Of a stretch of 64,000 nucleotides of DNA, positions 60 through 37,606 are shown in pieces. How positions within the stretch are numbered: the first letter of the stretch is position 1; each line of letters begins with the position of its first letter. This stretch comes from a virus. Lineage: Duplodnaviria > Caudoviricetes. The notes beneath the pieces are model-generated. The model made no database searches, had not been told where the DNA came from, and saw only the letters and a list, made by a program, of their open reading frames with translations. The translations under genes and the position numbers were made by a program. Location of the stretch: IMG/VR virus record IMGVR_UViG_3300020576_006930, positions 64,001 to 128,000 of that record. One strand, written 5' to 3'.

Positions 60-135
60 GGCCTGTTAGCTCAATTGGTAGAGCACGACTCTCTAAAAGT
101 TTTTGTTGCGGGTTCGAGCCCCGCACAGGCCTCCA
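60..135 (+). tRNA. tRNA-Sup (anticodon CUA, amber suppressor)
   Basis: GGCCTGT/ACAGGCC acceptor, GCTC/GAGC D-stem, anticodon loop CT-CTA-AA, GCGGG-TTCGAGC-CCCGC T-arm, discriminator T, encoded CCA; 76 nt. Confidence 0.9.
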
Positions 136-4375: not shown

Positions 4376-4376
4376 T

Positions 4377-18707: not shown

Positions 18708-18725
18708 ACCGATTTTAAGTAGATT

Positions 18726-20942: not shown

Positions 20943-20985
20943 CATTCTTCATATTTATATCCCAATCATTCTATTTATCTGTACA

Positions 20986-21552: not shown

Positions 21553-21555
21553 TCT

Positions 21556-23964
21556 ATGGCTTTAACCAATACACTAAAACAAAAAGTTGATCTTCCAGTA
21601 TGGGAGTGGATGCGCCCTTGCCCTATCGCCACTGCCGCTGGCGGAACGCTTACAACAGCGGATGACGGTGCCCACCGTTATCTATATTATTTGGGCGCGA
21701 CTTTCTATCGTTACGACACCATATCCGATTCTTGGAATCAACTAACCACTCCACCCGTAGCTAACAGCGGTATCGCATCCATTAAATACACGGGGTATCG
21801 TGGTTATTATGGCCGCGCCATCTCTGCGCCCAGCGCTAATACTTTGCGCATCGCGGGATTATATGGCAAAGCCTTGTCCGGTTATCGCATTCGGATTATT
21901 AGCGGCACTGGCGCTGGTCAGGAACGAACGATAACTGATGTCGCTGATCCTATTATTTGGGAGCGGGGGGTAGTAACGGCGGTTTCAACGACCACCCCGT
22001 TGTCTCTGTCGGATAGCACCAAAACCTGGGCCTTTAATCGTTATCGGGATTATCAAGTACGCATTGTATTGGGAACAGGAGTAGCCACCCGACAAACTTT
22101 TAAAATTCAGTATAACAGCAATAACACCGTTTATGTCGCGGATGGTAACTATCAGGGTCTTGAACCGTTCGTGGGCGCATGGTATCGTGCGTGGACAACC
22201 AGTCCTGTTACGACTGGTGGTTCTCAGACTATTTTTCAGATTGAATCCAATGATATTACGGTTAATTCCAATTGGGATATTTTACCAAATAATACCTCAC
22301 GTTTTGTTGTCCTGAGCGGAGGGATATGGGCTTTGACCGGTGGCACGAACTTTGTGTTGATGTACTATGACATTCTGTCTGACGCATGGTATAGTAAAAC
22401 CTCCCAAGGCGCAACCGGGATTGGGCCAAGCGCAGCTTTAGCCACCGATGTAGTCTTAGAGAAGTTGGGTGAATACGCCGGCGCATTTTGGTCCGGATCA
22501 GCCACCAGTGGCAGTTTACGCAATTTAACCGATGCGACTTTGAATTTGTCAGAAAATCAATATGTCAATTACCGTGTTCGAATAACAAGTGGTTCCGGCT
22601 GGGGTCAGGAACGAACAATTATATCCAGCAGTGTCAATACTTTAACGGTTGCTCCGCCATTTTCGATTTCGCCACTATCTTCATCACAATACAAAATTTA
22701 CGGTGACACAGATAAGTTGTTATGGACCGGTGACGGTAAAGCATCTCTCTACAAATATTCTGCCGAAGCAGATATTCACGTTCAGTCAGATATCTTAGAT
22801 TACGGTTGCCCCGCTCAGTATTGTTTTACTTGGGCTGGGATGCCAACTGCTGCGCAACCAATTTCATCCATTACCAGGGTGGGAACTTTAGCGCAAGTCA
22901 CGACCTCCTATAACCACTGCCTATCTGCGAGTAATGTAGTTCAGATTTACGGAGCAAGCGATCCGCTTTACAACATTTCCGCTAGCGTCACTTCCGTCCC
23001 AACGCTTACTGGATTTACTTATGTTATGGCTGGTACTCCAGGTTCTAATGCGACGACGGCTATACCCGCGCTTTCCATTAACAATCTATCAGATCCCAGT
23101 AAAAACTGGATTACTAATGAACATAGTGGTAGCATTTGTATTTATCAAAGCGCAACCGTAGGCACATATAACCCTGTGTTTCGTGCGTTTCGCATTCAAA
23201 ATAATACTTCCCAGTCATTGACTCTCTTTTCATCCTCCGCTGCCCCAATTATCGGAGGAAAATACGCGATTTGTTCCCAACAAGCCTTTGGCACATATTA
23301 TTCCGCGTCTGTTCCTGTAATGGGCAGCGCCACAACTCTTGGATCGACCACAACAATTGTGGATAGCACTAAAACTTGGCCGGTTAATATTTTTGCGGGA
23401 TATCGTGTCAAAGTAATGGCCGGCGCCGGCCATGGCTCAGAAGTAGCCATCACCTCTAACACGGCTACAACTTTAACGGTCGGCACATTATTAGCCGCTT
23501 CCGATACTAGTTCAATGTATTGTGTCCTGGGATCTCCGGTTAAAGGATTATCCCACGGTTTACTTTGGGCCGGGTCTACTTCCGGATCATTATATTCCGG
23601 CTACGAAAAATATCTATACTCACCGGTCGGCGGCGCCTCTTCCCAATTGACAAGGTTTAACCTTCAAACGGATCAGTGGGAACTTATTGAGTGGTATCCA
23701 TTTATGGAAACCCTAACCACTGGCACTTGTTATGCTTACGACGGAACCAATGATATTTATTTCCAAAAGGATAATACTGGAAGAATTTATCGTTTGGATG
23801 TCGCAACCTTGGTGGTTGAACCCGCAGCGACGATCCCTTACGGCCATAGCACCGTGCTTCTGGGTAATCGTATGGAAATCATTCAAACCGAAGACGATCT
23901 CAAATACTTATACATTATGCGTAACACGGGTCAGGAGATGTGGCGCACGCTTTTGTTTTGGTAA
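21556..23964 (+). CDS. Structural protein with beta-propeller and repeated beta domains
   Basis: Kelch-like ends; repeats of D.TK.W..N.Y..Y.VRI..G.G.GQ.R.I..N. Confidence 0.7.
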   Translation: MALTNTLKQKVDLPVWEWMRPCPIATAAGGTLTTADDGAHRYLYYLGATFYRYDTISDSWNQLTTPPVANSGIASIKYTGYRGYYGRAISAPSANTLRIAGLYGKALSGYRIRIISGTGAGQERTITDVADPIIWERGVVTAVSTTTPLSLSDSTKTWAFNRYRDYQVRIVLGTGVATRQTFKIQYNSNNTVYVADGNYQGLEPFVGAWYRAWTTSPVTTGGSQTIFQIESNDITVNSNWDILPNNTSRFVVLSGGIWALTGGTNFVLMYYDILSDAWYSKTSQGATGIGPSAALATDVVLEKLGEYAGAFWSGSATSGSLRNLTDATLNLSENQYVNYRVRITSGSGWGQERTIISSSVNTLTVAPPFSISPLSSSQYKIYGDTDKLLWTGDGKASLYKYSAEADIHVQSDILDYGCPAQYCFTWAGMPTAAQPISSITRVGTLAQVTTSYNHCLSASNVVQIYGASDPLYNISASVTSVPTLTGFTYVMAGTPGSNATTAIPALSINNLSDPSKNWITNEHSGSICIYQSATVGTYNPVFRAFRIQNNTSQSLTLFSSSAAPIIGGKYAICSQQAFGTYYSASVPVMGSATTLGSTTTIVDSTKTWPVNIFAGYRVKVMAGAGHGSEVAITSNTATTLTVGTLLAASDTSSMYCVLGSPVKGLSHGLLWAGSTSGSLYSGYEKYLYSPVGGASSQLTRFNLQTDQWELIEWYPFMETLTTGTCYAYDGTNDIYFQKDNTGRIYRLDVATLVVEPAATIPYGHSTVLLGNRMEIIQTEDDLKYLYIMRNTGQEMWRTLLFW

Positions 23965-23982
23965 AGAAAATTCAATACATAT

Positions 23983-25197
23983 ATGAATATGACACGCAAA
24001 CTTTTAATTGGTTTTTTAATCTGGAGTATGACTCTGACAATGTTCGGCGCAACCGTATCTCTGATCTACGATTCTGTCACGGGAACAATATTGAGTCGCA
24101 AAGAGTTGATTTTTCCGTCCAATGCGACTTTTAACGCGCAGGTATCCATTTATAGCCAAACCAACTCCATTTTAAATGTGGGCATCCTGAACCTAACTAA
24201 TAGTCTAATCGTTAATGGTTCAGGTGTACTATCCCAACTTGCAGTCGGGGCAACCAACGCTTCCGGCGGAACCAATATTCTTGAGCTTTTGTATAATGGG
24301 GTGAAGTTGGGGCGTTTCGGAACAAATGGGATTTGGTATGGTAATTTCGCCGGGGCGACCAATCTGCCCATAAGCGCATTTTGGGGCTCGGGTGGCACGA
24401 ACACGGCAAATACAAACGGTACATTAGGACAAGCTCTGTTTAGTTCCGGCAATGGCGGTGTATATTTCGGAGCAAGTCAGACACCAGGTGTTTTGTTTGG
24501 TGACCGGGCCGTCTGGAATGGGACGGCGTGGGAAGACGACTCACGATGGACGCATTTTGAGAATGAGTTTTTTCTTGCGCAATCCGTTGGCTACCCAATG
24601 GCAGTTTTCGGTACCGGAACTGGGGCTGGGGTAAGCAGCGTAGATACGACGAGCAATCGCCTCGGCGTGGTTACTCTGTCGCCCGGAACAACTGCCAATG
24701 GCTATTATGGTGAGTGTATTGGCAGCGCAGCCATTCGAGCGTTTACCTGGGGACAAGGTGAAAAGATGATCACCGATCTGACTTGTTATGTGGACACCTT
24801 ATCCGACGATACAGAGAATTATTGTTTTCAATTTGGTTATAGCGATTCACAAACCACAAATAATCCAGCGGATACCTTGCTTGTACAATACTCTAACAAT
24901 ACCAACGCGGGGAAATGGGAAATTATGTCACGCAATTCTACAGGCAGCACAAATGTTTACGATATCGGCACGAATGTCGTCGCTAGACGTTGGTATGACA
25001 TTCGTCTTGTTACCGACACGGATGGCACAAGTTCTGCTTACCTGGACGGTGTTCTGGTTAAGTCTGGTATTCCCGCCACGTCAGGTCAAGTCATTCCGAT
25101 GTTTAGGGTAAATAAAGCCGCGGGGCTACTAGATCGGCCGATCCGGTTGGATTATTATCGTTGGTCTATCAAGCGGGCGACTACCAAATATCAATGA
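23983..25197 (+). CDS. Signal-peptide protein, fibre-like N-part and lectin-like C-terminal domain
   Basis: MTRKLLIGFLIWSMTLTMFGA signal; beta-rich C-terminus. Confidence 0.7.
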   Translation: MNMTRKLLIGFLIWSMTLTMFGATVSLIYDSVTGTILSRKELIFPSNATFNAQVSIYSQTNSILNVGILNLTNSLIVNGSGVLSQLAVGATNASGGTNILELLYNGVKLGRFGTNGIWYGNFAGATNLPISAFWGSGGTNTANTNGTLGQALFSSGNGGVYFGASQTPGVLFGDRAVWNGTAWEDDSRWTHFENEFFLAQSVGYPMAVFGTGTGAGVSSVDTTSNRLGVVTLSPGTTANGYYGECIGSAAIRAFTWGQGEKMITDLTCYVDTLSDDTENYCFQFGYSDSQTTNNPADTLLVQYSNNTNAGKWEIMSRNSTGSTNVYDIGTNVVARRWYDIRLVTDTDGTSSAYLDGVLVKSGIPATSGQVIPMFRVNKAAGLLDRPIRLDYYRWSIKRATTKYQ

Positions 25198-28100
25198 GAT
25201 ACGCAATTTTTATATTTTTATTGTTATGCTTGGTGTTAAATTCTCCAGCGGAAAACCGCGTCCCCAATTCTGGATTTGAATTAGGACCTTCGCGTGGTTG
25301 GTTGTCGTGGGAAAATTTAAATAAACCGACGTTTAATGGCAACGGATCGCTCTACACATTCATGAACACGAATGCGAATTCCGGCGGTTATTCCTTTCGA
25401 TCCACTGGAAGGTTGCGTTCTCGCTTGTTTTGGTTAACCAATGGAAATTATGTTCTGACTTTTTCTGCCAAAGCAACTTCCGCCCATACTCATAAAGCGG
25501 GAATTTTAAACGAAACCGCAGGTGTAACTACCGTTGATCCGACAGATACGATTTCAGTCACTACCTCTTGGGCACGGTATACAAATACTTTCACGGCAAC
25601 CAGTGATGGTCTTTATTTTGTAAAATTTATTGATGTTAACGCGTCGGTTTTTTATGTGGATGATGTTCAGGTTGAGTCCGGCGTAACGGCGCATGACTAT
25701 GCGCCTTCAACTCCAGTTGAACTTGGTATTACGATTCCCCAGACAAATTCTATGTTTTTTGTTGGTCAAACGGCGCAGTTCACACTTAACTTTTGGAACA
25801 CAGGCCCGCCGACCAATGCCACGGCGCGGTATGATGTTTATGATTTCTGGAACTCAAATGTGTTGAGCGGAGTTACCTCCGTCGCCCTGGCGGCAGCAAC
25901 GAACACCACCACTAATATAAATATCCCCAATCTAACCGGCTGGTTTCGGGTAATGACTAGACTTGCGGATTATCCCGATTCGTGGGACGAAGCCACGTTA
26001 GTCGCATATCCGTTTGCGTCGAATATTACCTACAACGCAGCAACGGACTGGCTCGGCGGGCATCCACAAGATTCCACAAACAATATTAATCGTGAAATGA
26101 TGGCAGGGCGACACATCGGGAGAACTCTCGGGCCTGGATGGCAAGCCAATCGCTGGGGATTTGTGTCGGGTATTGAATATAATCAAGGGGTATTTGACTG
26201 GAACGATTACGCCATCACAAATTTGACGCAGCAAGGAATGTATGTGGTTGCGACCCTGACTCCGGAAGACGGAACGTGGCCGCATTACTTTACGAATAGC
26301 GAGGCGGTGAATCTGGGGCTGTGGAGTAACTACTGCTACAAGCTGGTTTACCGCTACAATGTCGAACTTGGACTCAGCAACAGCATCATTTATGAGGTTG
26401 GACCAAATGAACCACTACAATCCGGTCCGACTACACCCATCAATGTCCGGGACGCCGTGACCTACGCTAATGTTCTGACCTACGGCGTTTGGGGCGCAAC
26501 CAATGCGCATGGGAGCGCAAAACTAATCGGTATTGCCGGTGCGGCTGGAGCGGGTGAATGGGCTTGGTGGGTCTACACGAACTTACCAGCCGGAACAAAG
26601 GCAGCACTAACGGCGGTTTCCACCCACGTCTACCCACAGGATTCAGTGGGGGTTGCTTTAAACCCAAACGGAAGTTTTAACGCAGTAAGCTTCGTGAATA
26701 ATTCTTACGGTTATGCGACCAATTTTGCGGGGATCAAGCCTGTCTGGAATACGGAATCCGGAGTAGGAACTGTTTCAGGCTTCAAAGGTCAAAATACAAT
26801 GTGGACGAATTATTATTCATTGTTTAAAACCGATTACACTTATGAGAGCCAACGAATGGAACGGCAGAGCCGAAGTTTAACGGCGGTAATTACCAGCACT
26901 GAAGAAGCTCTCCGTGGTCTTGGCGCTGGTTTGGATAAGTTTTTATATTATGATTGTCGGAGATTTAACGATGCTTCATTTCAAACCGCTCAACCATACG
27001 GTCAAGATTATATGCAAGTTGATCACCCGCATCTAGTCTCCTTGTCCATCGCACAATATATGGTAACACACGGCTTTGGTCGGGTTGTCAATAGTGGAGA
27101 AACTAAAGTTGAAGCCTATTCTTTTACTAATTCCAGTGGCAATGCGGTAATAGCGGCGTGGAACTACGACCGCACCAACCGAACGGCGACGTTAACCAAT
27201 GCGTTTTTTGCCGCTTACGACGTAATGGGAAATCGGATTTCCACTAACTCAGCAAACATCGCACTAGACCGATTTCCAACCTACTTTGTGAGCAGCACGC
27301 TTTCGTTAGTTCAGATGAGCAATATGTTTTGTACAGCAACGTTTGTTAATGTTGCCGATACGATTCCACCTCAGGTTTCCTTCTCCGTTGCGCCGACTGG
27401 AGCGTGGAACGGTGATTCCGCCGGAACATTGGTTAAATGGGACGCGTTGGATAACCGGTGGTCGAATTATCCTGAGGGCTACGATTACACTAATATTCTC
27501 AGCAAATATTCACTAGACGGAGCTGCCTATACCACTTATTCCCAGAGCAATTACGTTTGGTTATCTGGGCTGTCAGCTGGCAACCACACAATTAAAGTTA
27601 CAGTTAAAGATAAAAATAACAATGCCGACGAATGGACATATGATTTTTTGGCTGGCGAAGACATCCCGGTTATTACCATCACCTCACCGACTAACAATCA
27701 ACCTTCCGTCGCGACATCAATAACGGTTACCGGAACAAGTTCTGATAATGATACGGTGAGTGGGGTTTCTTTAACTAACATATCAACTGGAGTCGGCGCA
27801 ACCGTAACCGGAACCACTTCTTGGAGCGCAACAATGACGTTGCGGCAAGGAACAAATACATTACAAGCCGTAGTCACAGATAATTTAAGTAATAAAGCAA
27901 CTAATTCAATTGATGTCATAGCGGTCAACCTGACAAACCGGAACACCGCCGTTAAATCTCCCTATTTAGGTGTACAGTATTTACAAATTCAGAATCCCGC
28001 TGCCCAGCATACTTTGATGTCTAATGTGCCCGCCACCTATGTCAATATGCCTATCACGTATGCGATCCTGACTGGCGGCGCATACGGGGGCCACGCAAAC

Positions 28101-29153
28101 GGAACAAATTATTACGATGCGACGTATGCCGCCAATACAAACGCGGGGTGGAATATCATTTTACAATTTTCTGATATGCCCACGAATCTTATTGCCACAT
28201 ATGTTCCTTATTTAGTTGCTAGGTACCCTTCGTGGATGGTGATCCCGTTGAATGAGAATGACAGCGCAGCGGAGTCGTCGGCGATCATCAAGTTGTTCCG
28301 GACGGCGTTACCGACGCAACGGCTCGGAGGTCCAGCTCTTTATCATATCGTCAACCCACCATATATTGATGCTTTGATCGCGAGCAACGCATTCCAATTA
28401 CTTGACAGCTTCGTCGCACACGATTACCTTGCGGTGCCGTTGAACGGGCTCTGCACGGCTGGCTGGTGGACGAATAGCTACTATCACCCGAGCAACACGC
28501 CGACGGGCTACCATCCGGAGTGGTCGGTTGGGAATCTGCCTAGCCGTTTAACGTGGATGAATAGCTACACGAACCAATTGCGGACGGATTATACCGATAC
28601 CCCGAAGGCAATTGTTTCAGAATATGGCATTTATCAAAATGATGTTCCTGATGGCGAATACGCAGGACGTATATTCCGTTCTATGCATATACCAGTTTTC
28701 GTCACGGCGAACTTCGCCACCACTAATCAGTGTCCATATAATAATGCTCTATACGATGGAGTTGGGGTTGGTTATTTCACCGAAAGTCAACAGGAATTTC
28801 TTTCCAGTGTAGAAATTACCAGTTCTTGTGCGGTTGCTTCTCCCGTCGTCGTGGCAAGTGGAGGCGCAGGTTTATATAGCACAAGTAGTAGTACAATTAA
28901 CGTATCAGGAACTTCAGATAATCCTGACGCGGTGATCTCGTGGAGTAATTCCCGAGGCGGCGCCGGATCGGCAACGGGCAATCTGACGTGGAGTAAGACG
29001 GGGATAACTCTTTATAGCGGTGGTAATACCTTAACTTTTACCGCAACATCAGGAGAGGATAGCACGTCTACTACATTAACGGTTACGTATACTCCGCCGC
29101 CTCCTGGTGGTTCGACGAACAATGTTTGGATATTAAATCTTTACAACCACTGA
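25194..29153 (+). CDS. Secreted multidomain glycoside hydrolase (CBM + clan GH-A-like barrel + Ig + second GH-like barrel + Ig)
   Basis: Signal MRYAIFIFLLLCLVLNSPA; NSGFE..YVDDVQVE CBM4/9-like; NEP and WNTESG catalytic-type motifs; second NE..HDY..SEYG; ATGA overlap with upstream stop. Confidence 0.75.
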   Translation: MRYAIFIFLLLCLVLNSPAENRVPNSGFELGPSRGWLSWENLNKPTFNGNGSLYTFMNTNANSGGYSFRSTGRLRSRLFWLTNGNYVLTFSAKATSAHTHKAGILNETAGVTTVDPTDTISVTTSWARYTNTFTATSDGLYFVKFIDVNASVFYVDDVQVESGVTAHDYAPSTPVELGITIPQTNSMFFVGQTAQFTLNFWNTGPPTNATARYDVYDFWNSNVLSGVTSVALAAATNTTTNINIPNLTGWFRVMTRLADYPDSWDEATLVAYPFASNITYNAATDWLGGHPQDSTNNINREMMAGRHIGRTLGPGWQANRWGFVSGIEYNQGVFDWNDYAITNLTQQGMYVVATLTPEDGTWPHYFTNSEAVNLGLWSNYCYKLVYRYNVELGLSNSIIYEVGPNEPLQSGPTTPINVRDAVTYANVLTYGVWGATNAHGSAKLIGIAGAAGAGEWAWWVYTNLPAGTKAALTAVSTHVYPQDSVGVALNPNGSFNAVSFVNNSYGYATNFAGIKPVWNTESGVGTVSGFKGQNTMWTNYYSLFKTDYTYESQRMERQSRSLTAVITSTEEALRGLGAGLDKFLYYDCRRFNDASFQTAQPYGQDYMQVDHPHLVSLSIAQYMVTHGFGRVVNSGETKVEAYSFTNSSGNAVIAAWNYDRTNRTATLTNAFFAAYDVMGNRISTNSANIALDRFPTYFVSSTLSLVQMSNMFCTATFVNVADTIPPQVSFSVAPTGAWNGDSAGTLVKWDALDNRWSNYPEGYDYTNILSKYSLDGAAYTTYSQSNYVWLSGLSAGNHTIKVTVKDKNNNADEWTYDFLAGEDIPVITITSPTNNQPSVATSITVTGTSSDNDTVSGVSLTNISTGVGATVTGTTSWSATMTLRQGTNTLQAVVTDNLSNKATNSIDVIAVNLTNRNTAVKSPYLGVQYLQIQNPAAQHTLMSNVPATYVNMPITYAILTGGAYGGHANGTNYYDATYAANTNAGWNIILQFSDMPTNLIATYVPYLVARYPSWMVIPLNENDSAAESSAIIKLFRTALPTQRLGGPALYHIVNPPYIDALIASNAFQLLDSFVAHDYLAVPLNGLCTAGWWTNSYYHPSNTPTGYHPEWSVGNLPSRLTWMNSYTNQLRTDYTDTPKAIVSEYGIYQNDVPDGEYAGRIFRSMHIPVFVTANFATTNQCPYNNALYDGVGVGYFTESQQEFLSSVEITSSCAVASPVVVASGGAGLYSTSSSTINVSGTSDNPDAVISWSNSRGGAGSATGNLTWSKTGITLYSGGNTLTFTATSGEDSTSTTLTVTYTPPPPGGSTNNVWILNLYNH

Positions 29154-29172
29154 TTGATAGTTATGGCGTGAT

Positions 29173-29580
29173 ATGAAAAAGGTAAAAATAATCTGGTTTT
29201 GTCTTGGGTTTATTATAACCGGTCTATTATGGGCGGCGCCTTCCAAACAATTGTTGGGGCCAACCGCAAGTACAACCGCTAACGCATTGGCCCGATGGAC
29301 CGATACCACGGCTTCCCGCTTGACTAATTCCGTGGTGTTCGTGGATATCAATGGCAATCTCAGCGGAGTTAATACCCAGAATTTGAACCAAGCTAATATT
29401 AGTACAGGTATCACCACCAATGGTCTGATTTTTTTAAGCCGCAGTAGTTTACCTAGTGCCAGTGATGTAGGTGGAACTATCGGTTCCATCACGAATTATC
29501 TTATGACGGTAACTAACGGAATAACGACGGTGTTTTGGTCCGACGGCACCACTTTATACAGCAAACAAATCGCTCCTTAA
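29173..29580 (+). CDS. Secreted stand-alone copy of shared C-terminal module
   Basis: Signal peptide + KQLLGP..WSDGTTLYSKQIAP. Confidence 0.8.
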   Translation: MKKVKIIWFCLGFIITGLLWAAPSKQLLGPTASTTANALARWTDTTASRLTNSVVFVDINGNLSGVNTQNLNQANISTGITTNGLIFLSRSSLPSASDVGGTIGSITNYLMTVTNGITTVFWSDGTTLYSKQIAP

Positions 29581-29586
29581 AACGAT

Positions 29587-30216
29587 ATGAAAAAAATACT
29601 AACATTCTTGCTGGCGATTCCATGGTTGGCATCGGCTCAAATCGGGATCACCGGCAACGCGGCGTTTGTTGGCGCGGCGGGCTTCTCGGTTGCGAGCACG
29701 GGCGGAGGCAGTTGCCCCGGCACGCCTACGGTGGCCCAAAATGTTTACAACGCAAATCAAGCATGTGGGCTTACGGATGGAATTGGACATTACCGAACGG
29801 GTTTAATCGGATACACCAACTCGGCGACGATCAACATTTGCGGGGCTGACTTTTTAATGACCTATGTGGCGGGTGACATTTCAGGGCTGACGTTTAAGGC
29901 TTATGTTTACTCGCTATCTGGAAACAACCTCGACACGTTGCTAGCAACATCCTCAACCACGATTTCTGGTAATAATAGCTGGTCCCATACCACCAATCAT
30001 TTCGATTTTTCAACGGCGGCTACCGTTAGTCCGGGAACGCGCGTAGCAGTTTTTGTGCAACCAACGCAGGCGGGGGATAATTCCAACTACGCTAGAATTG
30101 ACGTGCAAGACACAAATGTTTTGACCCCCGGAAACTTAGCGACTTGGAATAGCACGGGCGGAATTGAATTGAACGCAACCACGAATGACCCATGGATAAG
30201 CCTTTATTTTTATTGA
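29587..30216 (+). CDS. Secreted beta-sandwich protein
   Basis: MKKILTFLLAIPWLASA signal; jelly-roll-like composition. Confidence 0.7.
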   Translation: MKKILTFLLAIPWLASAQIGITGNAAFVGAAGFSVASTGGGSCPGTPTVAQNVYNANQACGLTDGIGHYRTGLIGYTNSATINICGADFLMTYVAGDISGLTFKAYVYSLSGNNLDTLLATSSTTISGNNSWSHTTNHFDFSTAATVSPGTRVAVFVQPTQAGDNSNYARIDVQDTNVLTPGNLATWNSTGGIELNATTNDPWISLYFY

Positions 30217-32000
30217 TCGGTTTGCTGCTGGCATTGCAGGCGCAAGCGGCGACCAACATTGCAACGAGTGTGTCTCGCTCTGATGTTAACGCGGCAATGT
30301 CGGCCTGTTCCAACGGGGATACCCTTTCGATTCCCGCCGGGTCCGCAGTGTGGACTTCGGCGCTTACGGTGACGAAATCAATTTCAATCATCGGAGCTGG
30401 CACAAATGCAACCTTCATCACCAACGGGCAAGCTAGCGGGGTCTGCACCATTTTTGCGTTTGAACCCAGCGCGAACGCCCCGCAGCGGCTTAGTTCAATG
30501 GCTTTCATCCAGACCAACGGGTTTGCTCAGCAATATGTAATTACTGTCAAGGGGGCTATTAGCTCGTTTCGGCTCGACCGCTGTTTTTTTACTCAAGGCA
30601 AGACTATCATCCAAACGGCACTCGCGGCGGGAAGCGGGCCGGTTTTCGGCGTGATTGACCATAACCATTTCTATAATTGTTCACTGGAAATACAGTGCTT
30701 CAATTTCCGAACCGGAGACACGTTGGACGGCGACCAAATGTGGACAGCCTGGCGGGCCGCTCCGAGCAGCTATATCGGAACGACTAACAGCATGGTGGTA
30801 GAAAATAATGCGTTCCATGTGGACAACTCTTTGGCGGGTGACAATGACGAGCCAATGAGCGGAGGGCGTGGGGCAATTTACGCTTGGCGATTCAACACCC
30901 ATCGAAGCGACAACACCTCGCGGGCCTATGTGGGTGTTGATATGCATGGTGCGTTTGCGGGGGTTCGTGGGGGAACGCTGTATGAGATTTACTCCAACAA
31001 TTTTTACATTGCCACCACATACCGACTCACCAAACAGCGAGGCGGAAGCTGGATATCCTACGGCAACACCTATTGGAACACGAACACGGTGAGGGACTTC
31101 ATAAACTTGGGTGCGGAAACGGGCACCGAGCAAACGGCGAATGCGGCGACCGGCGACGGTTACACCAATTCTTTTTATTGGGGGAACATCTCAAACGGTT
31201 CGGAAAATACAACCGTTGTTAACGACAGTCTGCTGCCCGCAGTTGAGGGGACGCATTACTTTTTGCACGCCCCGGCTTCCACCAACAATTTTTACCCCTA
31301 CACCCCGCTTGTCTATCCGCATCCACTCGTGACGGCGCAGGATGGCGGCGGAGGCGGCGACGTAACCGCCCCGACCTGCGTGATCACATCGCCGGCCTCG
31401 GTATCGAGCGGGAGCAGCGGAAGCTACAGCACCAGCAGCAGCACGATCACGGTGAGCGGAACGAGCGACGATGCGACGGCGACGGTGACGTGGAGCAATT
31501 CACGCGGGGGAGCGGGTACGGCGACGGGAAGCACAAGCTGGTCCGCACCAGACATCGCTCTTTATTATGGTGGTAATACACTAACTATATCAGCGACGGA
31601 TTTGAATTCCAATATAACCTCCACCGTCCTGTATGTCATTTATATTAGTCCTTTTTCCACTGCGAAACAAATCACCGGTCCCTTAGCTTATTCCCGGGCG
31701 CAATCCGCGGCGACCTGGGCCGATACCAATGCTTATAAAGTACTGGATTCACCCGTTTTAATTGATAATATTGGGAATATCACTGGCGTAAATACTCAAC
31801 AGATGGTCCAAGCAAATGTCACGACTTTATATACCACCAATGGCTTCCTCTTACAACAGAAAGCAAGCCCACCGGAAGTGTCAACCATCGGCGGTTCAGT
31901 TGGTAGTATAACCAATGGTTTTTTATTGAATTATAATGGCAAAATTTATATGTATTGGAGTGACGGTAATACATTATATTCCAAACAATTAATCCCCTAA
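30192..32000 (+). CDS. Secreted right-handed beta-helix protein + Ig + shared C-terminal module
   Basis: Signal peptide; GDTLSIPAG..ISIIGAG, VIDHN.F, VVENN.F, YEIYSN; YPHPL; C-terminal WSDGNTLYSKQLIP. Confidence 0.8.
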   Translation: MDKPLFLLIGLLLALQAQAATNIATSVSRSDVNAAMSACSNGDTLSIPAGSAVWTSALTVTKSISIIGAGTNATFITNGQASGVCTIFAFEPSANAPQRLSSMAFIQTNGFAQQYVITVKGAISSFRLDRCFFTQGKTIIQTALAAGSGPVFGVIDHNHFYNCSLEIQCFNFRTGDTLDGDQMWTAWRAAPSSYIGTTNSMVVENNAFHVDNSLAGDNDEPMSGGRGAIYAWRFNTHRSDNTSRAYVGVDMHGAFAGVRGGTLYEIYSNNFYIATTYRLTKQRGGSWISYGNTYWNTNTVRDFINLGAETGTEQTANAATGDGYTNSFYWGNISNGSENTTVVNDSLLPAVEGTHYFLHAPASTNNFYPYTPLVYPHPLVTAQDGGGGGDVTAPTCVITSPASVSSGSSGSYSTSSSTITVSGTSDDATATVTWSNSRGGAGTATGSTSWSAPDIALYYGGNTLTISATDLNSNITSTVLYVIYISPFSTAKQITGPLAYSRAQSAATWADTNAYKVLDSPVLIDNIGNITGVNTQQMVQANVTTLYTTNGFLLQQKASPPEVSTIGGSVGSITNGFLLNYNGKIYMYWSDGNTLYSKQLIP

Positions 32001-32001
32001 T

Positions 32002-32502
32002 ATGCTAAGTCCTATTTTCATTATGGGTCAGTTCCTTCAGCCCTTATATGGGTTTTCTGTTGCCGCCGCCGGCGATATCGTTTGGATTTCGCAAACCACC
32101 GACGCGGATTGGTGGCAAGGGACCATTCACTCTCAAGGGATTAAAAACTCATCGGCCCGCACCATTTCAAAAGTTAGAATCAAACTGGAAAATGCCGCCG
32201 GGGATACCACGGGCACCGTCGGCATTTACTCGCTTCAAAATGCCGGCGGAACCCAAACCGGAACAAGCTCGCAAGCCGTAACCCTAACCGGCGCAACCGC
32301 CGCATGGTATGAGTTCACGTGGGCGTCTAATCCGACAACGACGGCAGGCGACTTTTTTATCTGCCTATCCTGCGGGAGCGGGAACATTCGTGTGCGAACC
32401 AGCACGGTTTCGACGAGTTATGAAAACTCGTCTTACGACTACTGGAACGATGCGACCACGCACGCGGCAGACATGGTGTTTGAAATTTATACAATCCCTT
32501 GA
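32002..32502 (+). CDS. Small beta-sandwich partner protein
   Basis: Resembles 29587 (GFSVA near N-terminus, D..F.IY C-terminus); no clear signal peptide. Confidence 0.65.
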   Translation: MLSPIFIMGQFLQPLYGFSVAAAGDIVWISQTTDADWWQGTIHSQGIKNSSARTISKVRIKLENAAGDTTGTVGIYSLQNAGGTQTGTSSQAVTLTGATAAWYEFTWASNPTTTAGDFFICLSCGSGNIRVRTSTVSTSYENSSYDYWNDATTHAADMVFEIYTIP

Positions 32503-34556
32503 AGCGTTTTCTTTCATTTATTTTTGCGGTTGGTTTGGCCCTGCCAGCTTTTTCGGCTACCTACTATATTGATTACGGGGCGGCGAATGATTCGGCCAAT
32601 GGTCTGACCACCTCCACCCCCTGGAAGCGATGCCCGGGCATGGTGGGCTTCGCTGGCACTTACTCGCATAGCGCAGGCGACGTGTTCACATTCAAGGGTG
32701 GGGTGACGTGGCCAAAGACGGTCTTCCCTTTGACCATCGGTTACAGCGGCGCCGCTGGCAACGTGGACACCTATACTGTGGATCAAACTTGGTATTCAGG
32801 AGGGGCTTACGACTATCCGGTTTTCGACGGCGAGACGACGCTCGGAGGTGCGATTATTTCAATTCCGGCAGGTGGCCGGGATTACATAAAGATCAATGGG
32901 TTGAAGATGCAGAATTGCGACAACGGCACGAACTCCGTAGGCGCAATTATGATTGACATGTATGATGGGCGAGATATTGAAATCAGCTATTGCTGGCTCG
33001 CCCCAAACTCCATCGAGGCTTTTGATTACCTAGCCAACTCCAAAAGCGCGGCCAACATTTCAATCCACCATTGCACGATCCGAAACGCGATTCGAGGGGT
33101 GGTTTATGCCACGACCGGATTCAGCGTGACGAACGTTTCAGTTTACAACAACGATTGGCAAGGGCCGGGGACGATGTACATGGGCGGCTACCATGCAGAC
33201 GGCTTAATGGTGGGCGACCCAATCGCCGGCGTGGCCAATTCGATTTACAACTTGCGCGTTTACAACAACAAATTCTACGGGAATTGGCAGATTGCAACAG
33301 CCATCATTTACAGCAATGGGGGCGTGAACGGCGCTGAGATTTACAACAACGTCTTTTCGTTGGAAAACACAAACGGATACGCGACCAATCAGCCAATTTT
33401 CGGAGCGTTCTGCCAGTTTTATCGAAACGACACCAATCTTCGTTTCTACAACAACACCTTCTCCAGTGACGCCATGCACGGATGGAACGGCAGTGACCCG
33501 TTAGGGGCAAAGGCGGCGATTGCTCAATACACTCCCATCAGCGGCGCAGTGTTGACCGCCTACAACAATCTTTTTTCCAAATGTGCAATCGGGATAAATG
33601 TTGATGCGACGGTAACGGTTGTTTCAGATTACAACCTGCACGAGCCAGACGCATCGCATTGGGGTTATCTGATCTGGGGGGCGACCGCGTATAGTTCGCT
33701 TGCCGCCGCGCAAGGGGCAGGCTATGAGCTTCATTCGCCGGCACTGGCCTACGCCAGCTTTGTAACCGTTTCAAATGGCATCACGGGGGGTTCTGATTTC
33801 CGCCTTCAAACCAATTCTCCCGCCATCGGCGCCGGCACGAACCTAAGCGCCTTATTTACGGGCGACATTTTAGGTACCAATCGCGGAAGCTCGTGGACGC
33901 TTGGCGCGTATCAATCCGCGTCAAGCGGCGCCGGGGGCGGCGACGTTACCACCCCGACCGTTACCATTACCAGTCCCACTCATAACCAAGTTATTAGCGC
34001 AAACTCCATTGCGGTTAGCGGAACCAGTTCGGACGATGTCGCCGTCAGTTCGGTCGCCTTGACTAATACCTCAATGAATGCCGGCGCCACGGTCACCGGA
34101 ACAACCAGTTGGACGGCGACGATTCCCCTTCGCACCGGGACCAACCTTTTAAGCGCCGTGGCCACGGATAGCAGTGGTAATAAAGCTACTAATACGATCA
34201 CGGTCATTTACTCCGTGGCCAAACAGATTATCGGCCCAGTCGGATTAACAACGGCCAGGGCGCTTGCACGTTGGTTGGACACTTCCGCTTATAAATTAGC
34301 AAATAGCTCAGTGGTTATTGATGATTTAGGTAATGTCTCAGGTGTTAGTAACCAAACCATAATGAGACTGGACGTTGGTATAGTGTGTGTCTCCAACAAC
34401 TTGATTTTTATCCAGCAAAACACTGCTCCAATTGCTGGTGATATTGGGGGATCGGTTGGAAGTGTAACGAACTGCGTCATACGTAATGTCAATGGTATTC
34501 TAAATGGTTATTATTCAGACGGTGTAACTCTTTGGACAAAACAATTAGCCCCCTAA
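32499..34556 (+). CDS. Secreted pectate-lyase-like beta-helix protein + Ig + shared C-terminal module
   Basis: Signal MKRFLSFIFAVGLALPAFSA; ATYYID..ND..NG....PWK; HADG; IYNN.F repeats; DFRLQ..SPAIGAG; C-terminal YSDGVTLWTKQLAP. Confidence 0.85.
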   Translation: MKRFLSFIFAVGLALPAFSATYYIDYGAANDSANGLTTSTPWKRCPGMVGFAGTYSHSAGDVFTFKGGVTWPKTVFPLTIGYSGAAGNVDTYTVDQTWYSGGAYDYPVFDGETTLGGAIISIPAGGRDYIKINGLKMQNCDNGTNSVGAIMIDMYDGRDIEISYCWLAPNSIEAFDYLANSKSAANISIHHCTIRNAIRGVVYATTGFSVTNVSVYNNDWQGPGTMYMGGYHADGLMVGDPIAGVANSIYNLRVYNNKFYGNWQIATAIIYSNGGVNGAEIYNNVFSLENTNGYATNQPIFGAFCQFYRNDTNLRFYNNTFSSDAMHGWNGSDPLGAKAAIAQYTPISGAVLTAYNNLFSKCAIGINVDATVTVVSDYNLHEPDASHWGYLIWGATAYSSLAAAQGAGYELHSPALAYASFVTVSNGITGGSDFRLQTNSPAIGAGTNLSALFTGDILGTNRGSSWTLGAYQSASSGAGGGDVTTPTVTITSPTHNQVISANSIAVSGTSSDDVAVSSVALTNTSMNAGATVTGTTSWTATIPLRTGTNLLSAVATDSSGNKATNTITVIYSVAKQIIGPVGLTTARALARWLDTSAYKLANSSVVIDDLGNVSGVSNQTIMRLDVGIVCVSNNLIFIQQNTAPIAGDIGGSVGSVTNCVIRNVNGILNGYYSDGVTLWTKQLAP

Positions 34557-34629
34557 GCTATCTTTTTAATAAAATATTGATCGGTTTTCATACCGTTTAC
34601 CATATTTATAATCAAAGGAATCTTATTAT

Positions 34630-34854
34630 ATGGACTGGTTAAAAGGTATTTTAGAAGACAATAGTGGCGGCGCATCCTCCACACGCATATTAATGTTGGT
34701 CTGGGGCGTCGGAGTTTTCGTCGTTTGGGCTTATATTTCCCTCCATACGGGAGTAATGGTCGTTTTACCAGAAACCGTAATCACCGTGCTCCTTGGTACT
34801 TCCGCAATGAAAGTTGTTCAGCGGTTTGGGGAAAAGCCTGAAGATAAGAAATAA
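34630..34854 (+). CDS. Putative holin
   Basis: 74 aa, SSTR motif, two TM helices, charged C-terminus. Confidence 0.55.
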   Translation: MDWLKGILEDNSGGASSTRILMLVWGVGVFVVWAYISLHTGVMVVLPETVITVLLGTSAMKVVQRFGEKPEDKK

Positions 34855-34935
34855 TTCCGGCGTTTAATACACGCTTGAATTTTTTGTTACGGTAGAGTTA
34901 AATAGGCTAGTGGTGTATATTTATTCTCAAGACTC

Positions 34936-37152
34936 ATGCACCATCTAATTTTTCCAACTAAAGACTCTCACATCACCAATCAGAACTCTTATGCGGATAA
35001 GAATTTGGGATTGGATGAAATCCTAAAAGTCGGCTCTTATTCTCAATATTCTTCAGTCCGGGTGTATACCCACCTGTACACTTACCCCGACAATCAATAT
35101 TTTGATTGCCTGCTCGTAGATAGTTTTGCGGGAACGATCACCGGTTCTTTCACCGGAACGGCAAGTTATGCGTCGGGTAGCATCAATGGCACAGGTATTC
35201 TGACCGCTTCCTATTTTGTCGGCAGTGTCACCGGCAGTGTTTTTGGTTTTGAGGCCGGCGTGCCTGTTGCGGATAATGCGTTTTCCGGTTCGTTATCCGC
35301 TTTTAGCGGCAACATCTCTTCCAGCGCTGGCGGCTTGTTCGGTTATCTCACCGCCAGTTTTAATTCCGCTTATTTGGTGACCTACACAGGTTACATCAGC
35401 GGCTCCACTGGACAAATCACCGGCTATCTTTCTGGCTCCAACACGGCCAATGAACAGGGTTATGAAATTCTTGAAAACAAGGTTATTAGCCGGGCCTTGT
35501 TAAAATTTGATCTCACTGCCATTTCCCGCTCCATAGCCGATGGTTCCATTCCCAATCCCCAATTCCGGCTTAAAATGAAAATCGCTAAGGAGGAAGAACT
35601 ACCTCTGGCTTATACCCTTTACACCTTCCCTGTCAGTCAGAGTTGGGAAATGGGTACAGGTTATTTTTCCGATGGTGGTAGCAATGAAGGCGTCAGTTGG
35701 AATTGGCGCAATTTTTATTCCAGTAGTTACTGGTATCCGCCAGTGGAGTCTGACTTTCTTCCGACGGCGGACTATCTTAACGACTCCGCTTCCACGTGGC
35801 TATCGTTTAATCGTGGGGGTGGAACCTGGTATTACAAAGATGGGTTGAATAATAACGTCAAATGTACGCAATCGTTTGATTATGAGACCTCTGATGTCTA
35901 TATGAATGTCACCAGCATTGTCCGGGCTTGGATTACCGGCTCGCTACCCAACGAAGGTTTTATTGTAATGAGTTCCCTGGAAAACCAATCCGGCTCCAAT
36001 GGGTTATTGACTTTCTTTTCCCGGGATACCAATACGATTTTCTCCCCCACCTTGGATGTTATGTGGGATGATTCCGTGTGGACTACGGGGAGCGTAACGA
36101 CCGCCAGTGTTACTTTAGCCACTTTTCCCGCCGGTATAAGTTCCAGTATTCAAACAGGTTCGACTTTAACGATTGCGGGTGGAATTGCGGGCTTGTTCTC
36201 CGGCAGTGGGTTTTTTGTTTATGGTAATCAATTAGATGTCACCGCATCGGCCTTTGGAGGCTTTGTCGTTGGTCAGGGTTTGTCAGGAAATATTACCGGA
36301 ATGCCGGTGTTGGGCAACATTACCGGCTCCATCTCCGTGAGTCAATCGATTGTAACCGGCCCGTGTGGTAACGACTTTACCGCCTCATTTGTTTCCGCTT
36401 CTTTTACCAGTGGCCTTTTTAGTGGGAGTTCGTTTGGGGCTTACTATGTCGAAAATAAACTTGAAAATGGCTGGTTGACCGGTTCCTGGAGCCCTCTGGC
36501 GTTACTGGGAGCTAAGGTGGAAATCCCCATCCCAACCGGCATCGAACCGTACGCATACGCTTATGTTCACGGGATATACGTCAACGGCACGGCGTTGGGC
36601 ATCTACACGCTTTCTGGATCCTCCACCGACAGCGCAAGTTTCAGTGGTCAGTTTATTGATGGGCAATTAGCTGGTGGCACAATCAATTTACAGATGAGTG
36701 GGAGTGTCTTTCCCGCAAGTTATATGTATACCAGCAGCGTGGAATACTCAACAAATGCTTTGACCGCGCTGAACACGGATATTCCGTTCGTAGCCGTGGT
36801 TCAAAATCTGCGCCAAAAATATAGCAATGGTAATGTGGTGCGAATTAATGTTTTTGGGCGGGAAGAACAGCCGTTGAAAAACTTCGTTCGCCGGACGCAA
36901 TTGACCCAGTATATGATCCCCGCCTATTTGCCGACAGCCTCATACTATGCTGTCAAGGACAATGAAACGGAAGAGGTGATCATCGACTTCGACGCTTATA
37001 CGCGGTTAAGTTGCGATGAACACGGGAATTTCTTTATTCTGGATATGACGGGCCTGGCCCAGGAGCGCAATTATCGCATCCTTCTAAAATCCGTGGTCGG
37101 TGATGAGGTTTATGTCTTTGACAATGGCGACGTATTTAAAATTGTAAGATGA
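34936..37152 (+). CDS. Structural (baseplate/tail) protein
   Basis: KDS.I..N.GLDEIL, SRALLKFD, SWEMGTG, FFSRDTNTIF.P.L motifs with G/S-rich inserts. Confidence 0.7.
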   Translation: MHHLIFPTKDSHITNQNSYADKNLGLDEILKVGSYSQYSSVRVYTHLYTYPDNQYFDCLLVDSFAGTITGSFTGTASYASGSINGTGILTASYFVGSVTGSVFGFEAGVPVADNAFSGSLSAFSGNISSSAGGLFGYLTASFNSAYLVTYTGYISGSTGQITGYLSGSNTANEQGYEILENKVISRALLKFDLTAISRSIADGSIPNPQFRLKMKIAKEEELPLAYTLYTFPVSQSWEMGTGYFSDGGSNEGVSWNWRNFYSSSYWYPPVESDFLPTADYLNDSASTWLSFNRGGGTWYYKDGLNNNVKCTQSFDYETSDVYMNVTSIVRAWITGSLPNEGFIVMSSLENQSGSNGLLTFFSRDTNTIFSPTLDVMWDDSVWTTGSVTTASVTLATFPAGISSSIQTGSTLTIAGGIAGLFSGSGFFVYGNQLDVTASAFGGFVVGQGLSGNITGMPVLGNITGSISVSQSIVTGPCGNDFTASFVSASFTSGLFSGSSFGAYYVENKLENGWLTGSWSPLALLGAKVEIPIPTGIEPYAYAYVHGIYVNGTALGIYTLSGSSTDSASFSGQFIDGQLAGGTINLQMSGSVFPASYMYTSSVEYSTNALTALNTDIPFVAVVQNLRQKYSNGNVVRINVFGREEQPLKNFVRRTQLTQYMIPAYLPTASYYAVKDNETEEVIIDFDAYTRLSCDEHGNFFILDMTGLAQERNYRILLKSVVGDEVYVFDNGDVFKIVR

Positions 37153-37153
37153 T

Positions 37154-37603: not shown

Positions 37604-37606
37604 ATT

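Follow-up and report, generated by a model that had tools for sequence, protein, structure and literature searches.

A gene island inside the tail module of an uncultured freshwater phage encodes predicted Sec-exported, glycan-directed proteins

The stretch of DNA analysed here (the window, 64,000 nucleotides) is part of a 139-kb record with 168 ORFs, a 39%-complete fragment of a large, uncultured freshwater phage. Seven consecutive ORFs (g1 to g7), all on the + strand, occupy positions 23983-34556 inside the tail module, and ORF calling reproduces both the gene set and the coordinates given in an initial annotation of this DNA. The island, the small gene next to it and the flanking genes are arranged as follows.

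16731-23964, + strand: upstream flank, with genes for a baseplate-J-like wedge protein (16731-18707), a fibre-like 738-aa protein, a virion-protein-like 206-aa protein and a conserved 802-aa protein, all leaderless.
23983-25197, + strand: g1, 404 aa; predicted leader of ~23 aa, an N-terminal part of no recognised fold and a C-terminal jelly-roll (~aa 173-400).
25194-29153, + strand: g2, 1319 aa from the ATG chosen in the initial annotation; predicted leader (aa 1-19) and a clan GH-A barrel in the structure model.
29173-29580, + strand: g3, 135 aa; predicted leader (aa 1-21) followed by the C-terminal module alone (nt 29236-29577).
29587-30216, + strand: g4, 209 aa; leader with cleavage predicted after ASA.
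30192-32000, + strand: g5, 602 aa; predicted leader (aa 1-19), probable right-handed beta-helix (from its sequence pattern), Ig-like domain (aa 395-487, nt 31374-31652) and C-terminal module (nt 31665-31997).
32002-32502, + strand: g6, 166 aa; the sole island gene without a classical leader.
32499-34556, + strand: g7, 685 aa, TTG start; predicted leader (aa 1-19), probable beta-helix (aa 20-470), Ig-like domain (aa 486-570, nt 33954-34208) and C-terminal module (nt 34218-34553).
34630-34854, + strand: small membrane gene, 74 aa; two predicted TM helices and a charged C-terminal tail.
34936-42454, + strand: downstream flank, with leaderless 738-aa, 149-aa and 1615-aa genes, the last of which is also kept in a relative (L027).

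The g1/g2 and g6/g7 genes overlap as ATGA and TTGA, respectively, and g4 and g5 share 25 nt. Only 18 nt separate the island from the flanking tail gene and 73 nt from the 74-aa gene. The initial annotation grouped these genes into three coupled cassettes, each with a small beta-sandwich gene overlapping a gene for a large enzyme of the order signal peptide, catalytic domain, Ig-like domain and shared module. Three pairs do overlap, but g1 is not a small partner and the beta-sandwich fold of g4 and g6 is only a lead. The proposed domain order is exact for g5 and g7, but g2 lacks the shared module, which is carried instead by the separate, leader-bearing g3. Neither promoter-like sites (40 versus 28 +/- 5 in shuffled background) nor terminator-like sites (19 versus 20) rise clearly above background in our scans, and the sequencing runs listed for the sequence include no RNA data. 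Pfam, PHROGs and NCBIfam searches with all seven proteins return Ig-type matches and weak noise only. PDB sequence searches with g1, g2, g5 and g7 find nothing, and there are no matches among 50,697 GenBank phages to the island by megablast or to g2, g7 and g3 by tblastn.

Good signal-peptide candidates are present in g1 to g5 and g7, the six of seven that the initial annotation had claimed, when judged with a home-made heuristic that looks for a basic n-region, an h-region of 8-18 uncharged, hydrophobic residues, and small residues at positions -3 and -1. The g6 protein is also ticked by this heuristic, but it is not counted because its leader lacks a basic n-region and has glutamines in its core. 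Elsewhere among the 168 ORFs of the record there are only about five convincing candidates, and six leaders in seven consecutive genes is far beyond chance. The predicted cleavage sites (ASA/Q, AQA/A, AFS/A, SPA/E and LWA/A) all have canonical small residues at -3/-1. In the g7 family, a hydrophobic leader (median 27 aa) stops just before the conserved mature start, ATYYIDY, in 101 of 105 homologues, and all 20 full-length members of the g2 family (20/20) have one that ends at the mature start (median 19.5 aa). Phage and bacterial homologues keep the length and hydrophobicity of the leader while its sequence is free to vary. By these sequence measures the island leaders look functional, and the concern that they might be relics not conserved in relatives does not hold for the g2 and g7 families. 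With the position of the leader conserved in phage and bacterial homologues alike, the proteins appear to be genuinely exported, as had been proposed, and they most likely leave the cytoplasm, the site of particle building.

The g2 protein models as a clan GH-A (GH39-like) glycosidase. Its leader is followed by a CBM(CenC)-like sandwich, an Ig-like domain, a (beta/alpha)8 barrel (~aa 284-629), two beta-sandwiches, an Ig-like domain (aa 825-909), an unassigned domain of ~290 aa (aa 932-1217), another Ig-like domain (aa 1211-1302) and a short conserved C-terminal tail. In the AF2 model (pTM 0.82) the barrel comprises model residues 265-610. The best Foldseek match is a GH39 structure (5jvk_A, E 3.7e-18, TMt 0.68), GH2 entries come next, and a comparison with BFVD matches phage GH5-type proteins. 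Two sites, N405-E406-P407 and E521, do not vary across 20 sequences, and they are placed as a catalytic pair would be, with the putative acid/base Glu of the N-E-P motif after strand 4 (model strand 379-383) and the putative nucleophile Glu at the end of strand 7 (498-503). The catalytic part has no matches in Pfam, NCBIfam, PHROG or PDB sequences, and since no curated GH family matches, we give no CAZy family.

The C-terminal jelly-roll of g1 may be ConA/SO2946_C-like, a lead that comes from an Atlas structure match (TM 0.83) to viral SO2946-like_C clusters. Residues 151-404 of g1 are 77% identical to a leader-bearing 613-aa protein of L025, and its relatives in L025, L026 and L032 are enzymes or lectins of 604-613 aa. 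An unaligned, leader-bearing 1068-aa gene stands in the place of g1 in L034. For g4, the Atlas offers a DUF4082-like feature, again as a lead, and there are no Pfam, PHROG or NCBIfam matches. No similarity between g4 and g6 is detectable.

The beta-helix assignment of g7 derives from its 281 homologues, many of which carry a precomputed PF13229 match. The g7 protein itself has no PF13229 match at E up to 0.1, and its score against the choice-of-anchor Q family NF041518 is weak (21.3 bits, below the cut-off of 25). These homologues are secreted bacterial proteins with a beta-helix, and the gene for the closest one (51% identity) lies next to a flippase and a pyruvyl transferase in a bacterial exopolysaccharide (EPS) locus. 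The g7 catalytic domain is 30-51% identical to bacterial secreted right-handed beta-helix proteins (PF13229; NF041518), whose leader is at the same position. Those compared (474-811 aa) end without the fibre-repeat module, and several bear other extra domains, whereas the phage versions add a Big_7-type Ig-like domain and the full trimer module and lie in a tail operon. The mature N-termini begin straight with the catalytic domain, as in the bacterial homologues, without a leaderless N-terminal tail or baseplate anchor. The Ig-like segment of g5 is a module shared community-wide, with a depth of 150-350x versus 34x and many loose ends.

The C-terminal module (~112 aa) is present three times, in g3, g5 and g7, and it makes up a stand-alone gene in the case of g3. 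It consists of one fibre repeat and a terminal domain of ~55 aa. Trimer modelling, which the initial annotation had suggested, was run on g3. The homotrimer model is intertwined and scores 0.90 versus 0.00 for the best control; the mark is reached by 20 of 30 homomers of solved structure and by 1 of 23 solved single chains. At least 87% of the contacts are shared between runs and pLDDT is at least 88, compared with ~45 for the same stretch as a monomer. From this model, the C-terminal modules of g3, g5 and g7 are predicted to form homotrimers. Stand-alone counterparts of g3 with leaders occur in L027 (136 aa), P0127, P0132 and P0138, and no relative emerged from an IMG/VR pattern scan for g3. 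Recoding of a stop codon that would fuse g2 and g3 was rejected; TAG is the codon read by the phage tRNA, and the two genes stop at TGA and TAA.

The terminal ~55-aa domain is a mark of exported proteins, as judged from predicted leaders, which are found in 33 of the 44 proteins that end in it versus 13 of the 92 that have the fibre repeat only. It also ends secreted enzymes in Wzx/Wzy polysaccharide loci (P0185 and P0172), one of them in a Verrucomicrobiota MAG, and SGNH esterases of such loci share it with the island modules. Neither phage nor bacterial carriers give a Pfam or NCBIfam match to this domain. T9SS-type CTD, PEP-CTERM and similar sorting domains were rejected as its identity because no curated model matches. 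Like the foldon of T4 fibritin, it is very short, lies at the extreme C-terminus after a fibrous segment and would nucleate trimerisation. It differs in having no detectable homology to the foldon, in being about twice as long and in occurring mainly on leader-bearing proteins, and its trimer is a model.

The 74-aa ORF that follows the island had been called a holin. Its translation does fit the shape of a class II holin, with two predicted TM helices, a charged, putatively cytoplasmic C-terminus and a length within the 60-150 aa range, but it has no Pfam or PHROG family match, and no endolysin gene of the PF00959 (Phage_lysozyme), PF01510 (Amidase_2) or PF01464 (SLT) families is found in the 39%-complete fragment. 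Its single weak match, at E 8e-3, is a small Ralstonia phage RS-AB1 ORF and is uninformative.

A survey of related phages, also suggested in the initial annotation, recovers comparable arrangements elsewhere. At a different genome position, L027 has a three-gene leader-bearing island that is directly followed by a 75-aa gene 72% identical to the 74-aa ORF. A pair of leader-bearing enzyme genes, with small TM and lipoprotein genes after it, is also found in unrelated podovirus-like contigs with an SU10-type capsid and in other phage contigs, and the g2-like member in the podovirus-like contigs is 76-83% identical to g2. Small membrane or lipoprotein genes come after the island in the four different phage backgrounds in which the downstream genes were read. 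In a further 24 distant relatives, collected by way of the 802-aa upstream gene, the downstream region lacks such an island, and their distance makes the set uninformative. The GC3 of g4 to g7 (0.53-0.58) is above that of the flanking genes (0.42-0.47). The earlier description of a glycan-directed block inside the tail module is supported, and the block travels with a small membrane protein.

We judge it an evenly balanced question whether the island encodes exported trimeric enzymes that act on host surface polysaccharide late in infection, in a receptor-destroying or escape role outside the virion, and this is the reading that we prefer. The island would then be a horizontally mobile, late-expressed cassette of Sec-exported proteins, with a clan GH-A glycosidase (g2), two probable beta-helix enzymes (g5 and g7), a lectin-like protein (g1), two small partners (g4 and g6) and a protein that is stalk only (g3). 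Each chain would cross the inner membrane via Sec and lose its leader, and g3, g5 and g7 would trimerise through the fibre repeat and its foldon-like cap. In the periplasm or at the cell surface, the enzymes may cleave or attach to exopolysaccharide or O-antigen on a diderm host, which is probably a freshwater member of the Verrucomicrobiota, to judge from one MAG match and a prepilin-type gene. Working at lysis alongside the small membrane protein encoded next to them, they would strip away the polysaccharide layer so that progeny can be released, and would prevent both progeny and superinfecting phages from adhering to the dying cell. Kinship with bacterial secreted enzymes of polysaccharide loci and the absence of an N-terminal virion anchor both favour this non-virion role.

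Several observations pull the other way, toward virion appendages that are exported, trimerised in the periplasm and added to cytoplasm-built particles as depolymerase or receptor-binding fibres, either when the inner membrane opens at lysis, perhaps through the neighbouring small membrane protein, or after the burst. We consider this alternative possible but doubtful. The initial annotation had offered both outcomes, attachment of exported proteins to virions and remodelling of the host capsule. The island is closely packed between its neighbours in the tail module and stays linked to the holin-like gene. The repeat in its C-terminal module is typical of leaderless phage fibres, the modelled intertwined stalk is tailspike-like, and the g1 jelly-roll resembles viral fibre or spike tips, which is again a lead. 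In the siphovirus-like L031, a leader-bearing protein with the terminal domain is encoded at the place expected for the receptor-binding protein. Cellulophaga phage phi10:1 (KC821618) likewise has, at the end of its tail module, consecutive genes that all begin with classical leaders, gp091-gp094 and a pectate lyase gene, gp095. Small TM proteins come next, and a GH108-like lysis enzyme lies further downstream. The phi10:1 proteins gp091-gp094 are annotated as structural from MS/MS of a virion preparation, whereas the island is known from sequence alone, and the two share neither sequence similarity nor the C-terminal trimer module; phi10:1 has a Bacteroidota host and Q-rule leaders. Such MS/MS can also catch co-purifying secreted proteins or vesicles. 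Weighing further against virion appendages, the C-terminal module is limited to three island proteins in the 139-kb fragment with no docking paralogue visible, the terminal domain is common to ordinary bacterial secreted enzymes, and leaderless fibre-like genes are present on both flanks and in the podovirus-like relatives. A broader version, which we hold to be similarly unlikely, extends this to tailed phages of several diderm phyla (Verrucomicrobiota being the probable one here), in which some of the host-recognition apparatus would be made in a second compartment. Sec-exported depolymerase fibres would trimerise in the periplasm by means of a cap borrowed from host enzymes and would join particles once a dedicated membrane protein opens the inner membrane. 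As a side claim of this version, the ~55-aa domain would be a previously undescribed one with which Verrucomicrobiota trimerise or sort their secreted proteins.

It is improbable that these are auxiliary or conversion genes, moron-like secreted glycanases that reshape host exopolysaccharide or feed the infected cell and have no link to lysis or virions. The catalytic domains shared with bacterial EPS-locus enzymes, the compositional island formed by g4 to g7 and the mobility of the cassette among phages would all suit such genes. However, the island is tightly packed in a late tail operon, where no boundary signal rises above background, it is followed by small membrane or lipoprotein genes in all four phage backgrounds, and a nutritional role would not readily account for a trimeric fibre-like stalk. 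More improbable still is that the leaders are non-functional, as relics or cytoplasmic membrane tethers, and that the proteins are tail fibres or spikes of the ordinary cytoplasmic kind. The sole argument for this is the general rule that virion proteins of tailed phages are made in the cytoplasm; against it stand canonical cleavage sites and leaders kept across hundreds of homologues, including bacterial ones that must be secreted. Finally, an assembly chimera with a host fragment misjoined into the phage contig, a possibility raised in the initial annotation, has practically no chance despite a rise in GC across 29.6-34.6 kb and Logan contig breaks at 29.9-31.5 kb, and is rejected because contigs from separate samples (X1, 20000-29892 and 31487 to beyond 38500; X2, 21598-26150 and 34202-35730) bridge both borders, the breaks fall on the repeated Ig module, and the same kind of island occurs in L027.

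The island has partial parallels in several known phage systems. Depolymerases of the virion such as the P22 tailspike and the K1F endosialidase lack a leader and use an N-terminal anchor for attachment. The island shares with them predicted beta-helix or glycosidase domains, predicted trimers, a location among tail genes and modular swapping, but in its proteins the enzyme begins immediately after an N-terminal leader, and the stalk predicted to trimerise is at the C-terminal end. Llp of T5 and Cor of phi80 and N15 are small lipoproteins that mask a protein receptor, protecting progeny from debris and blocking superinfection. They are also exported phage proteins encoded beside host-recognition genes, whereas the island encodes large enzymes that would remove polysaccharide. 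Endolysins exported by Sec or as SAR proteins (Lys44 of Oenococcus phage fOg44 and Lyz of P1) are single proteins directed against peptidoglycan. Like the predicted island proteins, they are lytic-stage enzymes that use host Sec and are outside the cytoplasm before the holin acts; the island differs in being a multi-gene set with predicted glycosidase and beta-helix folds. Leader-bearing proteins of unassigned function have been noted in Porphyromonas gingivalis phages (PMC10367356). In the literature searched, we found no paper describing leader-bearing tail proteins or a cassette of this kind. The initial proposal of an undescribed system fits this searchable literature, but the layout is already contained in a deposited record of a cultured phage, phi10:1.

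Virion proteins of tailed phages normally assemble in the cytoplasm, and textbook accounts place the whole process of assembly there. Phage depolymerases are known in two forms, as spikes on the virion and as surplus soluble copies freed at lysis. A conserved, mobile block of trimeric glycan enzymes in tail operons that, by its leaders and models, appears to be Sec-exported would fit neither picture. A further implication is a short, new domain for trimerisation or sorting. If the enzymes act freely, then an exported receptor-destroying or matrix-clearing function would be added to the phage release programme. If they join virions, then assembly would span two compartments. Either outcome bears on the prediction of depolymerases and receptor-binding proteins from metagenomes, because pipelines assume that these proteins carry no leader.

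The initial annotation had correctly located seven consecutive open reading frames (g1 to g7) inside the tail module, and its count of six genes with signal peptides holds: g1-g5 and g7 begin with convincing signal-peptide-like N-termini (leaders) by an n/h/c-region heuristic, and their predicted cleavage sites are canonical (ASA/Q, AQA/A, AFS/A, SPA/E and LWA/A, cut at the slash). The heuristic also ticks g6, which we left out of the count because its leader has no basic n-region. Elsewhere among the 168 open reading frames of the virus record, the same heuristic finds only about five further convincing candidates. The genes surrounding the island are tail genes, and the features of the region are as follows.

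16731-18707, baseplate-J-like wedge protein, a tail gene near the island
20932-21552, virion-protein-like gene, a tail gene near the island
21556-23964, 802-aa gene, with the same partner alongside in 24 IMG/VR phage contigs
23983-25197 (+), g1, leader-bearing
25194-29153 (+), g2, leader-bearing, predicted glycosidase
29173-29580 (+), g3, leader-bearing, with the shared C-terminal module
29587-30216 (+), g4, leader-bearing, without family assignment
30192-32000 (+), g5, leader-bearing, with Ig domain and the shared C-terminal module
32002-32502 (+), g6, without family assignment
32499-34556 (+), g7, leader-bearing, with beta-helix part and the shared C-terminal module
34630-34854, 74-aa holin-like small membrane gene, two predicted transmembrane helices

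The proposed coupling of neighbouring genes is borne out by overlaps of ATGA between g1 and g2, TTGA between g6 and g7, and 25 nt between g4 and g5. The order of leader, catalytic part, Ig domain and shared module that had been put forward for these genes describes g5 and g7, and g3 consists of leader and shared module only. The three copies of this C-terminal module (about 112 aa) align at 46-47% identity with no notable gaps, and Ig domains of two kinds are shuffled between g2, g5 and g7 with 58-65% identity. The GC3 of g4-g7 (0.53-0.58, versus 0.42-0.47 in the flanks) fits import from a higher-GC source. The predicted C-terminal jelly-roll of g1 resembles SO2946_C/ConA-like domains of viral proteins, which is a lead only.

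The virus record is a single sequence of 139,132 bp, of which the window makes up bases 64001-128000. It is linear according to IMG/VR, and its completeness of 39% (CheckV) implies that the phage is probably a jumbo phage whose full genome measures about 350 kb. The phage is present in runs from two studies, one of them labelled a riverine metagenome. Its genes show no Shine-Dalgarno sequences. Of the window's 44 large open reading frames, 29 end in TAA, 15 in TGA and none in TAG, and a phage-encoded tRNA with anticodon CTA (window 60-135) reads TAG; this codon may be avoided as a stop, or may be decoded as sense at a late stage of infection. At 44329-45363, an HNH or homing-endonuclease-like gene (GC 0.33, GC3 0.27) lies between two genes that adjoin each other in the related phage contig L027, and looks like a recent insertion. 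A single 1066-aa open reading frame (50907-54107) matches SbcD-like phage nuclease families in its N-terminal part and SbcC-like ones in its C-terminal part, and appears to be a fused SbcCD. Far from the island, beside the tRNA cluster, two neighbouring 117-118-aa proteins have classical leaders (MKKLL...; 4022-4733). At 4 kb upstream of the window (genome 59884-60732), a 282-aa protein carries a prepilin-type N-terminal methylation motif (...AFTLIELLVVIAIIGILA...); proteins with this motif are very abundant in Planctomycetota-Verrucomicrobiota genomes, and this one is a possible clue to the host.

A chimeric host contig is ruled out by Logan contigs of separate samples that cross both island borders, those of sequencing run X1 covering 20000-29892 and 31487 to past 38500, and those of run X2 covering 21598-26150 and 34202-35730. 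The breaks in these contigs are confined to 29.9-31.5 kb. Depth climbs from about 34x to 150-350x across the Ig segment of g5 (31106-31722), where four runs show many variant letters and alternative flanks. This Ig module is thus carried by many different genomes of the same river communities, and it breaks the assemblies.

Nor do the leaders look like non-functional relics that relatives have lost. A cleaved signal peptide is free in sequence, but its length, hydrophobicity and end point are conserved, and this is the pattern kept in both families compared. For the beta-helix part of g7 there are 281 homologues, most of them on bacterial contigs, which reach 5 Mb. In those whose sequences were read, the leader always ends directly before the conserved start ATYYIDY; over the family, 101 of 105 members have a strongly hydrophobic stretch in the leader, whose median length is 27 aa. 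The closest g7 homologue (51% identity) has a polysaccharide flippase and a pyruvyl transferase as neighbours. Over its first 830 residues g2 has 20 homologues, and in the full-length members the leader ends ahead of the motif N-L-x-P-N-S-x-F-E (20/20; median 19.5 aa). This comparative evidence says that the island leaders are functional.

A fold model of g2 residues 20-830, made with the 20 homologues (pTM 0.82), contains a CenC-like carbohydrate-binding sandwich, an Ig-like domain, a (beta/alpha)8 barrel and two more sandwiches. Its best match in the PDB is the GH39 enzyme 5jvk_A (E 3.7e-18, TMt 0.68), with GH2 enzymes next in rank, and among viral models GH5-type phage proteins match best. 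Two sites do not vary throughout the family, N405-E406-P407 after strand 4 and E521 where strand 7 ends, and in the model they lie as expected for the acid/base and nucleophile of clan GH-A. Because g2 matches no curated sequence model, no CAZy family is assigned. The C-termini of family members carry a short conserved tail, for example ...NNVGTLxIR or ...NVSGTANIGTITV (homologues P0279-P0297). This tail is retained in g2 (...NNVWILNLYNH, 29100-29150) despite an insertion of about 390 aa ahead of it, and could be a docking strand or sorting tag.

A profile search with the shared C-terminal module over 1.84 billion representatives, followed by local re-scoring, divides the module into two parts. 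The first, at positions 4-50, is a repeat that 92 large proteins carry in 2-22 copies; these look like ordinary phage fibres since few of them have leaders (13/92, several doubtful). The second, at positions ~54-112, is a strongly conserved domain, always at the extreme C-terminus, that matches no model in Pfam or NCBIfam. Of the 44 proteins with this domain, 33 have leaders; the passenger domains are beta-helices, SGNH esterases or of unassigned kind. Two of these proteins sit within bacterial Wzx/Wzy polysaccharide loci, one in a MAG titled uncultured Verrucomicrobiota. The monomer model of g3 has a confident terminal domain and a disordered repeat part (pLDDT ~45), and three copies of mature g3 give an intertwined trimer that scores 0.90 (best control 0.00), with at least 87% of contacts in common between runs and pLDDT of at least 88. 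Among solved structures, 20 of 30 homomers and 1 of 23 single chains reached the mark for this score, in a calibration that used two copies and its own alignments and applies only roughly to three-copy g3. We read the module as a putative C-terminal trimerisation device, a short fibre with a foldon-like cap, and trimerisation at this end suits chains that leave SecYEG N-terminus first.

L027 is a true relative, with a 213-aa and a 379-aa protein that are 86% and 62% identical to window proteins. Its island has three leader-bearing genes: a 136-aa g3-like protein, a 1089-aa glycosidase ending in the C-terminal module, and a 437-aa protein 73% identical to the second half of g2. Directly after them is a 75-aa gene 72% identical to the 74-aa gene of the window. 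The L027 island lies after fibre-like genes and before a homologue of window gene 46403-49156, so the block sits at differing places in the two phages with the small membrane gene after it both times. In phages of different types (L025, L026, L032, L033 and L034), a leader-bearing gene of 604-1068 aa overlaps a leader-bearing g2-like gene. L026, L032 and L033 have an SU10-type capsid and a GC content of 0.60, and the g2-like gene of the podovirus-like contigs is 76-83% identical to g2. Small transmembrane proteins and lipoproteins lie downstream of the enzyme pair in the three contigs read (L025, L026 and L032). Four to six more small transmembrane, lipoprotein or leader-bearing genes follow the pair in L026 (14327-16461) and L032 (13067-15211), and structural genes resume past them; with the pair they make up a larger block of predicted exported proteins. 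The siphovirus-like contig L031 encodes a 1245-aa leader-bearing protein with the terminal domain at its end, at the place expected for a receptor-binding protein.

The enzymes and domains of the island are of known kinds. What is new is that a whole tail-module block is predicted to be routed through Sec, that its modelled C-terminal trimer module is shared with enzymes of host polysaccharide loci, that the stalk also exists as a stand-alone protein, g3, and that the block is conserved in its position next to a small membrane protein. The literature searched contains no description of such a Sec-routed block of leader-bearing genes, and comes nearest in Porphyromonas gingivalis phages, where leader-bearing proteins of unknown function were noted (PMC10367356).

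The island proteins are very probably exported. They would pass through Sec with leader cleavage, trimerise in the periplasm through the C-terminal module, and then attack a diderm host, probably one of the Verrucomicrobiota, at its exopolysaccharide or O-antigen. The main alternative to a non-virion role, which we consider rather doubtful, is that they serve the phage itself as depolymerase fibres that mature in the periplasm and are joined to particles once the inner membrane opens. The odds of such virion fibres are raised by Cellulophaga phage phi10:1 (KC821618), where gp091-gp094 all start with classical leaders and are annotated 'structural protein ... experimental MS/MS proteomics', although secreted proteins can co-purify with virions. 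A leader also starts the phi10:1 pectate lyase gp095, and small transmembrane proteins and a GH108-like enzyme come next. Given export, we favour a non-virion role, to which we give roughly even chances overall, because ordinary secreted bacterial enzymes have these same catalytic parts and this terminal domain, the island proteins have no N-terminal anchor, and leaderless fibre-like genes lie on both island flanks. Such non-virion enzymes would clear the infected cell of its surface polysaccharide, which would let progeny get away and keep both progeny and competitors from adsorbing to the dying cell. T5 Llp follows the same logic, which the island would carry out by enzymes.
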